Below are positions 15,595 through 17,183 of a stretch of DNA of 64,000 nucleotides, piece by piece (positions within the stretch are counted from its first letter, which is position 1; each line of letters begins with the position of its first letter). The notes under the pieces were generated by a model. The model saw only the letters and a program-made list of their open reading frames with translations, did not search any database and had not been told where the DNA came from. Made by a program: the position numbers and the translations under genes. The stretch is from Escherichia coli (GTDB lineage Bacteria > Pseudomonadota > Gammaproteobacteria > Enterobacterales > Enterobacteriaceae): assembly GCF_024223415.1 (NCBI RefSeq), contig NZ_CP100501.1; one strand, written 5' to 3'.

Positions 15595-17183
15595 AAGAGT
15601 AAGGAACTTACTGATTCATTTAATATTATTATCCATCAATAACTGAGCATACAAAAAAATAACAAAACTCTGACACAGATACAACCAGCTCTCTCTATAT
15701 CAGACTGACATTCTTCTCAAAAAGAGGCGTGTTCTGGAACACGGAACAGAAGCAATGAACATTGTAGACAGAAACACACTCTGTTTTTTACACGAGGATA
15801 TATGTCGGGAAAATCAGGCAGAAGAAATTAAAGGACTTTGTGCATACAAAGGGAAAGCGCGTTTCCGGTGCACCATATTAGATATTATCCCTGCTACAAA
15901 CACCAGAGACGCGCTCATAACTCTTCTAGCGTAAAATATCCTTTCAGGCAAGGAAAAGGTCGTGATACAGAATCACGACCTTAATTTTATCGAAAACACG
16001 GATTTTAGTATGCACATGACTGTACTCCTCAGGAGTACAGGGAAATCATAATCAGTAACAAAAACACCCGGCAACAAAAATTTAACGCGTTTACGCTATT
16101 TTTGTGACAAATATTGCAAATATGGAATCACTGTATTTTTACTGCAACAAAATCTGGTTGATCCACAGGCGGATCCGGGGTAAAAAATTATCCGGAATGT
16201 TTCTGCGTGGTGTGGTAAAACCTCTAGCCGGATTGCCTTTGCAGCAACGCAGGAACATTCCATCCTTTATCAGTACTCCTGACGCTGTAAAGACCTGGCT
16301 GATGCAGACAGGACTGCTGATATCGAATCAAAGCTTTCTCATTTTTTCGCGTACACAAAATAAAACAAATCAGGCAATTCCTTACACTCCCCCTCTAAAA
16401 TTGAGGGGTTTTTTTTTACCATATAAATTACTTGCACAGCTTTTAAAAAAATTGCAAATCTTTACTGTAGTGTCGGGCTTCATGTAGCTCAACAGGGCAT
16501 GGACTAAAAAGAAGTAAACCCATCTTTTATCTCCCTGATATGGGGGTCTTTGTGGCATAAAGAATTCCTTGAATTATTATTTTGATCATATCAACATGAA
16601 AAGAATAATACTCTGACTTTTGATTTCCAGTGCCAGATATAAAATCAAATTCACTGTAAATATCACATAATGATATCTGGCTGCCCCCAGTCACTTCCTG
16701 TATTCAGCCACACATATAAGCCCCCTGAATTTCCTTGTGGTTTTTATGTGATAAAAACCACAAGGAAACGATGGTTGAAATAATATTTAAAATGTGAAAG
16801 ATATCACCCGTAGAATTTTTCAATCCGACACTCCATAGAATGGACCTTTAAGATTTAATCCTCATCATGTATGAGGATTTTTTTTCTGGCAGACAAAAAT
16901 ATCTTTTCAGCAATCCCTGTTCAGTTCCGGTTCTGGTGACTCTGGAAGAGGTATTGTTACACGCTATAACCTGCCGGAATGACTCAGGTCCGTTCATCTC
17001 TGATACCATTAAAAGAAGCATTAAGCACATTCTGAGCGCCTCTTACAGAAGAAGCGGAACGCGTTCCTGGCTCCTGTTGCATAATCTTACTAACCCCATG
17101 GTTTTCTTGACTGCCAGAAACGCGCCCACAGTTTTTTTAGCCTGTCTCCGGTTCCTTGTCTAGAATACTGTTGATTTTTTGTT
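15595..17183. other. AT-rich non-coding orphan segment between IS2 and IS629-like copy 2
   Basis: No convincing ORF; contains terminator-like hairpins (ccccctctaaaattgagggg + T-run near 16390-16420; aatcctcatcatgtatgaggatt + T-run near 16857-16890) and a palindrome ttccttgtggttttt...aaaaaccacaaggaa near 16730-16770. Confidence 0.4.

Follow-up and report, generated by a model that had tools for sequence, protein, structure and literature searches.

The AT-rich segment at positions 15595–17183 of the window (the whole analyzed stretch, 64,000 nucleotides of the Escherichia coli contig NZ_CP100501.1) is recurrent, unannotated, non-coding DNA of small plasmids. It is not a pseudogene, and it falls into no curated RNA family. 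The segment (38.9% GC) has no conserved open reading frame (ORF) and is homologous to the intergenic region between cer and mbeA of small ColE1-like plasmids. Sequence comparison makes it very probable that noncoding DNA from a small plasmid was captured here and was cut by insertion sequences. As for the complete account, in which this captured cargo also carries units resembling small RNA (sRNA) genes, we consider the chances for and against it to be evenly balanced.

The edges of the segment are sharp. The terminal repeat of IS2 ends at 15594 (...GGGGGCCAGTCTA), and the segment begins one base on; on the other side, the IS629-like end TGAACCGCCCCGGG begins at 17184, one base after the segment stops. 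An earlier note on this DNA had placed the segment exactly between IS2 and the second IS629-like copy and had called it AT-rich, and both descriptions are borne out: the GC fraction is 0.389, vs. 0.531 in IS2, 0.539 in the IS629-like copy, and 0.52 in the whole window. Two other features named there are real, although their dimensions had to be corrected. Instead of two hairpins followed by T-runs, there are three on the plus strand (15956–15982; 16390–16408, then nine T; 16857–16879, then eight T) and weaker ones on the minus strand (15743–15728 and 17041–17023). All three plus-strand sites have the GC-rich hairpin and ensuing T-run of an intrinsic (Rho-independent) terminator. A scan of 13800–17300 for such structures returned 7 sites, compared to 3.1 ± 1.6 in shuffled sequences. 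The palindrome, reported with 15-bp arms, has perfect 18-nt arms (16730–16747 and 16751–16768) separated by 3 nt.

Does the segment encode a protein? The longest ORF (127 aa, GTG start, 16104–16487) passes through the terminator at 16390 and is not kept in relatives; when it was compared to 5.8 billion proteins, the only matches were of the self type, i.e., predicted ORFs of the same element. The claim that the segment contains no ORFs is thus true in substance. No ORF is common to the lineages described below. Substitutions between lineages show no preference for any of the three phases, and the indels (4, 5, 7, 12, and 14 nt) do not keep to multiples of three. Ten of the longest stop-free fragments from the six frames gave nothing in Pfam at E ≤ 5. 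The Pfam result, the flat substitution phases, and the restriction of protein matches to the self type together rule out a protein-coding gene or a pseudogene; the region does not match a known pseudogenised protein-coding locus, as neither a Pfam match, nor codon periodicity, nor a shared ORF was found.

Known RNA genes were likewise absent. The covariance-model scan that had been proposed, run with Rfam 15 on 15000–17800, returned no family at E ≤ 1 (0 matches), and a scan of the whole window at gathering score found only sok, two ALIL, and AgrB, all of which lie outside of the segment. The segment contains no tRNA or tmRNA.

Although it had been termed an orphan, the segment has homologs in 33–38 plasmid records; of 5426 complete E. 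coli genomes, 36 contain such DNA, in every case on plasmids. Some 22 large E. coli plasmids (IncK2/Z, IncI-type transfer genes), most of them from poultry, have copies that are ~99% identical. A more diverged variant, with ~79% identity over 1.54 kb, is found in ColE1-like plasmids of 5.7–9.4 kb (L001, L004, L005, and L007); the plasmids of this type that were compared are pSMS35_8 (L007), pPK8275-8kb (L001/L006), the colicin R plasmid (L004), and pEC332_05 (L005). The window-type and small-plasmid-type variants are both carried by strain 135. A third lineage comprises the Col8282-type plasmids L009 and L010, in which an unannotated stretch of 1.7–2.9 kb, otherwise unalignable, holds short shared blocks as islands that are partly reshuffled. 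Scans of one genome per species yielded no more distant relatives, a metagenome scan yielded only the same three lineages, and a phage collection contained no match to the segment. Literature searches for pSMS35_8, for the Col8282 and colicin R plasmids, and for the STAXI (RF01728) and EFASI (RF02957) motifs turned up no account of the region.

In all of the compared ColE1-like plasmids, the segment is unannotated and lies between cer and the mbeA stop (the XerCD core of L001 is at 8144–8173). It constitutes 27% of the 5.7-kb pEC332_05, whose only annotated genes are a small ORF labeled as a replication initiation protein, rop, mobC, mbeA, and an IS remnant. The IS629-like remnant of this plasmid abuts the segment and is 99.8% identical to copy 2 of the window, an arrangement that suggests IS629 as the vehicle of capture. 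The classical map of ColE1, at 6.6 kb, would leave no space for a region of this kind, and we thus regard it as accessory DNA. The conjecture that the segment is the remnant of a deleted accessory module can accordingly be retained in part: it is a fragment of the ORF-free accessory region between cer and mbeA, interrupted by IS2 and cut short by IS629. It does not derive from genes that have since been deleted; neither diverged lineage shows a protein signal.

Other plasmid elements were considered as identities for this DNA and rejected. A cer-type Xer site had no match in the window at ≤ 3 mismatches and none in the IS2-free segment with 6–8-nt spacers; the true cer lies outside of the homologous block in L001 and L004. 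For the ColE1 RNAI/RNAII origin, RNAI was located only at L001 4689–4791, L004 5975–6078, and L005 90–191, far from the segment. A remnant of a Rep_3 iteron origin of the Col8282 type was dismissed on two grounds: the iterons of L009 (582–688) are outside of the shared region, and the segment contains neither tandem repeats nor iterons.

While the right edge of the segment was correctly delimited, the left edge was incomplete. IS2 (14264–15594, minus strand) is flanked by a 5-bp target duplication, AAGAG, at 14259–14263 and 15595–15599. In the sister plasmid pTB-nb2 (L003), 14264 is joined directly to 15594–15662, and IS2 is located ~70 bp farther to the right. Together, the duplication and the direct junction identify IS2 as a simple insertion into a once-continuous stretch, which, as read from these junctions, is 13861–14263 plus 15600–17183. 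The left continuation of the noncoding segment (14137–14263), which was delineated by alignment with L004, L005, and L009, has a degenerate hairpin at ~14240–14258 after an A-run; this hairpin would be the terminator of the minus-strand unit A described below. Next to it, and part of the same captured small-plasmid fragment, is an ORF for a basic protein of 81 aa (13891–14136, minus strand, from the ORF list) with an AGGAGG ribosome-binding site. Its region is 86% identical to L004 912–1252. The ORF has few homologs; in other ColE1-like plasmids, it is sited directly after rop, without the noncoding segment, and the segment is absent from the contigs that encode these homologs. The ORF is intact in the window, whereas it is frameshifted or interrupted by IS elements in the small plasmids.

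On the right, the fragment is truncated by IS629-like copy 2 (17184–18494, minus strand), as judged by the sequence at the junction and by comparison with L003. The right-hand part of the segment (16900–17165) includes a palindrome, GGAACGCGTTCC, at 17058–17069 and the motif CAGAAACGCGC at 17115–17125; its small-plasmid homology stops at the point where mbeA has its stop in the small plasmids. Past window position 17183, L003 continues for ~390 nt that are 92% identical to the Col8282-type plasmid L010. This continuation holds a STAXI motif, which starts 30 bp after the cut point in the window and scores 70 bits in L003 and 89 bits in L010; the latter plasmid has an EFASI motif as well as STAXI and the shared motif blocks. 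From this comparison, we conclude that the continuation, including STAXI, has been removed in the window and that the IS629-like copy stands in its place. Both IS629-like copies are flanked by pieces of an IS256-family transposase gene that are not contiguous with one another, indicating that this area has been rearranged repeatedly.

The following history is very probable. A fragment of an ORF-free accessory region of small mobilizable E. coli plasmids traveled as passenger DNA, and IS-mediated rearrangement led to its capture in a large plasmid of the IncK2/Z/IncI type. After capture, IS2 split the fragment, leaving the AAGAG duplication, and the IS629-like copy cut off its right end.

The conservation of the segment is patchy. 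Identity to the small-plasmid lineage is 98% at 15627–15686, 93% at 15846–16025, 92% at 16790–16848, and 90% at 17017–17076; it is 50–62% at 16550–16730, within a poorly conserved AT-rich stretch (16540–16775). The perfect palindrome at 16730–16768, which is specific to the window lineage, is in this stretch; it looks like a quasi-palindrome that was made perfect rather than a conserved site. The same stretch contains a 29-nt motif (16636–16664) common to the window and L009. The blocks of high identity are also those in which hairpins, terminators, and promoter-like hexamers lie, and several of these blocks survive as islands in the otherwise unalignable Col8282-type plasmids. Two of the three terminators are kept in L004 and L009 with altered stems.

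This pattern bears on the main rival to our account, namely that the region is a functionless relic: decaying hitch-hiker DNA in which hairpins and terminators are vestiges and recent recombination, not selection, accounts for the conserved blocks. Decay would be in keeping with a region that is rare and confined to E. coli plasmids, that tolerates insertions of IS1, IS2, and IS629, that neighbors the broken 81-aa ORF of the small plasmids, and that has suffered deletions and acquired its own palindrome in the window lineage. Further, both variants co-reside in some strains, and recombination could partly explain the patchy identity. Decay is harder to reconcile with the lack of a trace of any protein family, with motif islands that persist in Col8282-type plasmids amid unalignable flanks, and with hairpins that are kept through compensatory and wobble changes; in addition, a multicopy plasmid of 5.7 kb retains the region at 27% of its length. 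We judge a functionless relic to be unlikely, albeit an explanation of some weight.

One motif recurs throughout. In all three lineages, CAGAAACGCGC is found in strong excess: the counts of AACGCG are 6, 4, and 4, compared to an expectation of ~0.2–0.4. The motif mostly forms the arms of paralogous hairpins and once forms the palindrome GGAACGCGTTCC. A member of this hairpin family, P2 (15856–15915), was recognized as an inverted repeat with the arms AGCGCGTTTCCGGTG and CACCAGAGACGCGCT; its folding z-score is approximately −2.1 to −2.4, and a similar hairpin is found at L009 4942–5008. A separate ~45-nt motif, TTGACATCCTCCACGCCCTGAAGGACGGGG, occurs in L004, in L009, and, next to hok/sok, in >900 plasmids. 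Because the window has lost this motif by deletion, it does not belong to the finding on the segment.

The many paralogous hairpins with the shared stem CAGAAACGCGC could also be viewed as cis-acting elements of single-stranded DNA on the transferred or lagging strand, serving as priming signals (ssi, primosome assembly) or as single-strand promoters in mobilization. The sequence GAAGCGG is present at 17052–17058, and its AAGCGG portion is, we presume, common to phiX-type primosome sites. The hosts are mobilizable plasmids, the region abuts the relaxase gene, and STAXI adjoins it in relatives; the portion of the Rfam description of STAXI quoted in PMC12370729 raises a single-stranded-DNA role for that motif. 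Nevertheless, the T-runs and promoter-like hexamers that accompany the hairpins are typical of ordinary transcription units, the wobble evidence assigns different hairpins to different strands, and the modules in L010 are inverted relative to STAXI when compared with L003. Single-stranded DNA elements are, in our estimation, an improbable explanation.

We favor instead a reading in which the region, in its native small plasmids, would serve as a group of clustered, short transcription units that do not encode protein. In each of them, a weak promoter of the sigma-70 type would be combined with one or two conserved hairpins, a single-stranded stretch rich in AU, and an intrinsic terminator. Unit A and small RNA 1 would be transcribed leftward, and unit B (~220 nt) and unit C (~60 nt) rightward. 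In the window, unit A would be disrupted, and small RNA 1, unit B, and unit C would be intact.

Unit B (16194–16418, plus strand) is a candidate structured RNA of ~220 nt defined by folding and by the alignment of three lineages. Its 5′ hairpin (16194–16261) has the conserved loop CUCUAGCCGGAUUGC and is followed by a second hairpin (16268–16321), an AU-rich stretch with AAUCAGGCAAUUCCUUAC, and the terminator at 16390–16408 with its nine T. The folding z-score is −3.8 for the window and −3.4 for the L009 counterpart, which folds alike. In a four-sequence alignment representing three independent lineages, 96.5% of the cells are paired in a structure that was predicted from that same alignment. 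For this alignment-derived structure, 7 pairs are changed on both sides across the three lineages, vs. 2.0 ± 1.2 in shuffles and 1–5 in slid controls; with only three independent lineages, we consider these covariation counts weak. The G-U wobbles favor the plus strand, and the architecture is kept with compensatory changes in all three lineages.

A promoter-like site for unit B (16158–16186, plus strand) emerged from the three-lineage alignment: TTGATC (16158–16163), a 17-nt spacer, and TAAAAA (16181–16186). The hexamers and their 17-nt spacing align with TTGATC-17-TAAAAA in L004 and TTGCGC-17-TAAAAG in L009, while the spacer diverges. The site was not called by a simple promoter scan, and TAAAAA lacks the final T. 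Moreover, RNAalifold predicts a closing helix (16177–16192 with 16373–16389) that would put the 5′ end upstream of the proposed −10, and this helix conflicts with the promoter-like site.

Small RNA 1 (15948–16038, minus strand) is a candidate of ~90 nt with a predicted folding energy of −27.8 kcal/mol and a z-score of −4.6. It has a 9-bp 5′ hairpin (16022–16044), a 38-nt AU-rich single-stranded core, ACUAAAAUCCGUGUUUUCGAUAAAAUUAAGG, and a terminator hairpin (15956–15982) with a U-run. Fifty-one nt are invariant between the window and L004, and L009 keeps the core ACUAAAUUCGUGUUUUCGAUAAUUUUAAGG and the terminator, with 3 compensatory pairs. A scan located a promoter-like site at 16045–16074 (minus strand; TTGCCG, 18 nt, TATGAT). 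L004 has TTGATA-18-TATGAT in a diverged spacer, and a clear −10 is missing from L009.

Small RNA 1 encloses an ORF of 14 codons with a GAGGAG site, and another ORF, of 26 codons, is found at 16523–16443 (minus strand). Could these be very small protein genes or a type I toxin–antitoxin pair, each controlled by an antisense RNA? Both have good Shine–Dalgarno spacing and both are present in L004, and hok/sok-type loci are common in this plasmid context; the window itself has sok at 26936–27092. Yet L009 lacks both start codons, the peptides do not resemble hydrophobic toxins, and the sok model has no match in the segment. The 26-codon ORF is lengthened to 48 codons in L004 by a 1-nt indel, and its substitutions, as read from the alignment, are 2 non-synonymous to 1 synonymous. 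We deem this explanation very unlikely.

The best-conserved block of the segment is the body of unit A (15600–15700, minus strand), which is 98% identical to the ColE1-like lineage and 81–84% identical to the Col8282-type plasmids. The block spans 105 nt and ends in AATCAGTAAGTTCCTTAC; IS2 separates it from its terminator, which was already degenerate. The 3′ module of unit A (AAUCAG..UUCCUUAC and the terminator) also ends unit B, in inverted orientation. This symmetry can alternatively be ascribed to a defective transposable element, MITE-like or IS1-like, in which an ~800-bp module would be enclosed by 32-nt imperfect inverted repeats (15596–15627 and 16357–16388). The repeats are 75% complementary, the module is close to IS1 in length, and AACTTACTGATT presumably resembles an IS1 terminal repeat. 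However, tblastn searches with InsA and InsB found nothing, target duplication and dispersed copies were not seen, and the repeat is present just once in L009. A conserved RNA 3′ module with an outward-facing terminator is the better reading of each repeat, and a transposable element appears to us hardly credible.

The last unit, C (16787–16887, plus strand), is a predicted RNA of ~60 nt that came from the scan and from folding. TTAAAA and TAGAAT, 18 nt apart (16787–16816), precede a short hairpin, UCCAUAGAAUGGA, and the terminator at 16857–16879 with its eight T. Identity of the block to L004 is 92%, and L009 yielded no counterpart.

What might these RNAs act upon? A search of the plasmids for trans targets of the loop of unit B, the core of small RNA 1, and UUCCUUAC retrieved only self-matches. 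The idea that the segment may encode small RNAs, also raised in the earlier note, gains from the promoter-like hexamers, conserved hairpins, and terminators and from compensatory changes in one unit over three lineages; set against this, none of the Rfam families matched. It is plausible and unproven. On the strength of unit anatomy and limited covariation, we put the prospect that transcription of the units yields RNAs with a regulatory role at slightly short of even. More tentatively still, and with doubt predominating, the region may be an undescribed set of plasmid non-coding RNA genes, with unit B as its clearest member, the paralogous CAGAAACGCGC hairpins, and two RNAs sharing AAUCAG..UUCCUUAC and a terminator; such a set would be accessory cargo circulating with STAXI and EFASI among small mobilizable E. 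coli plasmids, and the host or conjugative helper plasmids would be its targets.

These results have consequences for annotation. In the window, the segment should be labeled as captured small-plasmid DNA in an IS junkyard, not as a lost gene module. It is also a record of traffic, linked to IS629, between small Col plasmids and the large plasmids associated with poultry. The results further draw attention to the fact that some multicopy plasmids of 5–9 kb carry 1.5–2 kb of conserved, ORF-free, unannotated DNA beside STAXI and EFASI, motifs that still await an explanation. Should the sRNA-like units prove to be expressed, they would provide a small, tractable system for studying what non-coding cargo does for tiny plasmids.

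How does the segment compare to known systems? Like STAXI and EFASI, which are RNA motifs of enterobacterial plasmids, it is structured, ORF-free, and found on E. coli plasmids. The models of these two motifs match neither the segment nor the rest of the window, though they are present beside the segment in L003 and in L010; and where the Rfam description gives STAXI repeated pseudoknots, the units of the segment have an ordinary promoter and terminator anatomy. The ColE1 elements cer/Rcd and RNAI/RNAII belong to the same plasmid family, and the segment is directly beside cer in the small plasmids, but it lacks the XerCD core, and RNAI occurs only at the true origin elsewhere. With hok/sok loci, the segment shares a plasmid location, highly structured RNA, possible long-range pairing between the 5′ and 3′ ends, and a nearby candidate for a short RNA read from the other strand; it differs in that sok is unmatched, a Hok-like ORF is absent, and there is no overlap between small RNA 1 and unit B as defined. 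The terminator-ended sRNA genes of the Hfq or ProQ type have a weak promoter, a 5′ stem–loop, an AU-rich strand, and a Rho-independent terminator with a U-run, all of which recur in the candidate units (60–225 nt); unlike those genes, the units belong to no sequence family. Finally, the single-strand signals ssi and Frpo are, like the segment, hairpin-rich, orientation-dependent, non-coding DNA on transferable plasmids, whereas the canonical terminator tails of the segment argue for transcription from duplex DNA.

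In the IS cluster that encloses the noncoding segment, the two IS629-like copies (copy 1, 12056-13345, plus strand; copy 2, 17184-18494, minus strand) are inverted relative to each other, and both are flanked by an IS256-family transposase gene that lies in three non-contiguous pieces (11940-12055, 13346-13804 and 18495-18675). The sequences on the two sides of each copy do not match, implying an IS-mediated deletion or inversion. A 757-aa ORF (18963-21236, minus strand) is annotated as the conjugative transfer protein TrbC in pEGY2, a near-identical plasmid. Because DsbC-family and TrbA genes come next after this ORF, the IS cluster is placed at the edge of an IncI-type transfer region.

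In the window outside the noncoding segment, Rfam returned matches at gathering level: the sok antitoxin (26936-27092, plus strand; 126 bits), the AgrB antisense RNA (23817-23904, minus strand; 52 bits), and the ALIL frameshift pseudoknot in IS629-like copy 1 (12391-12477, plus strand) and copy 2 (18042-18158, minus strand). The ALIL match was much weaker in copy 1 than in copy 2 (64 vs. 116 bits). An intact, highly basic 81-aa ORF with an AGGAGG ribosome-binding site is located at 13891-14136 (minus strand). Its homologues are very few; they occur directly after rop in other ColE1-like plasmids, including one Salmonella contig. In the small plasmids harboring the noncoding segment, a frameshift or an IS insertion disrupts the ORF.

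The motif CAGAAACGCGC / AACGCG is over-represented approximately 18-fold in each of the three lineages (large-plasmid, ColE1-like and Col8282-type). Its sites (15857-15914, 16195-16252, 17058-17069 and 17115-17125 in the window; also in the colicin R plasmid L004 and the Col8282-type plasmid L009) are mostly arms of paralogous hairpins, and their recurrence may reflect either a putative protein-binding site or past duplications of the hairpins. At 16730-16768 lies a perfect palindrome, its 18-nt arms separated by 3 nt, that is found only in the large-plasmid lineage. Given that the ColE1-like lineage shows numerous mismatches and a gap of 7 nt at this site, the comparison suggests a quasi-palindrome that was rendered perfect through template switching.

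Directly past the point at which the window's segment is cut short by IS629 lie STAXI (RF01728) and EFASI (RF02957) motifs (7546-7703 in the sister plasmid pTB-nb2; 4401-4560 and 5038-5160 in L010). The small Col8282-type plasmid L010 has both, adjoining the shared motif blocks. In L009, four to five 21-22-bp iterons (ACCTTAAATCATATTGCCTTT; 582-688) lie upstream of the Rep_3 gene; from their position, the origin of this plasmid is distinct from its long noncoding stretch.

A motif of ~45 nt, TTGACATCCTCCACGCCCTGAAGGACGGGG, is present in L004 (1253-1302), L009 (3698-3728, 4246-4301 and 4508-4562) and L011 (2201-2243); the window lineage has lost it by deletion. The motif recurs in more than 900 plasmids, including IncI2 and IncHI2 types; in IncI2, a degenerate second copy of the hok/sok leader lies just downstream of it.
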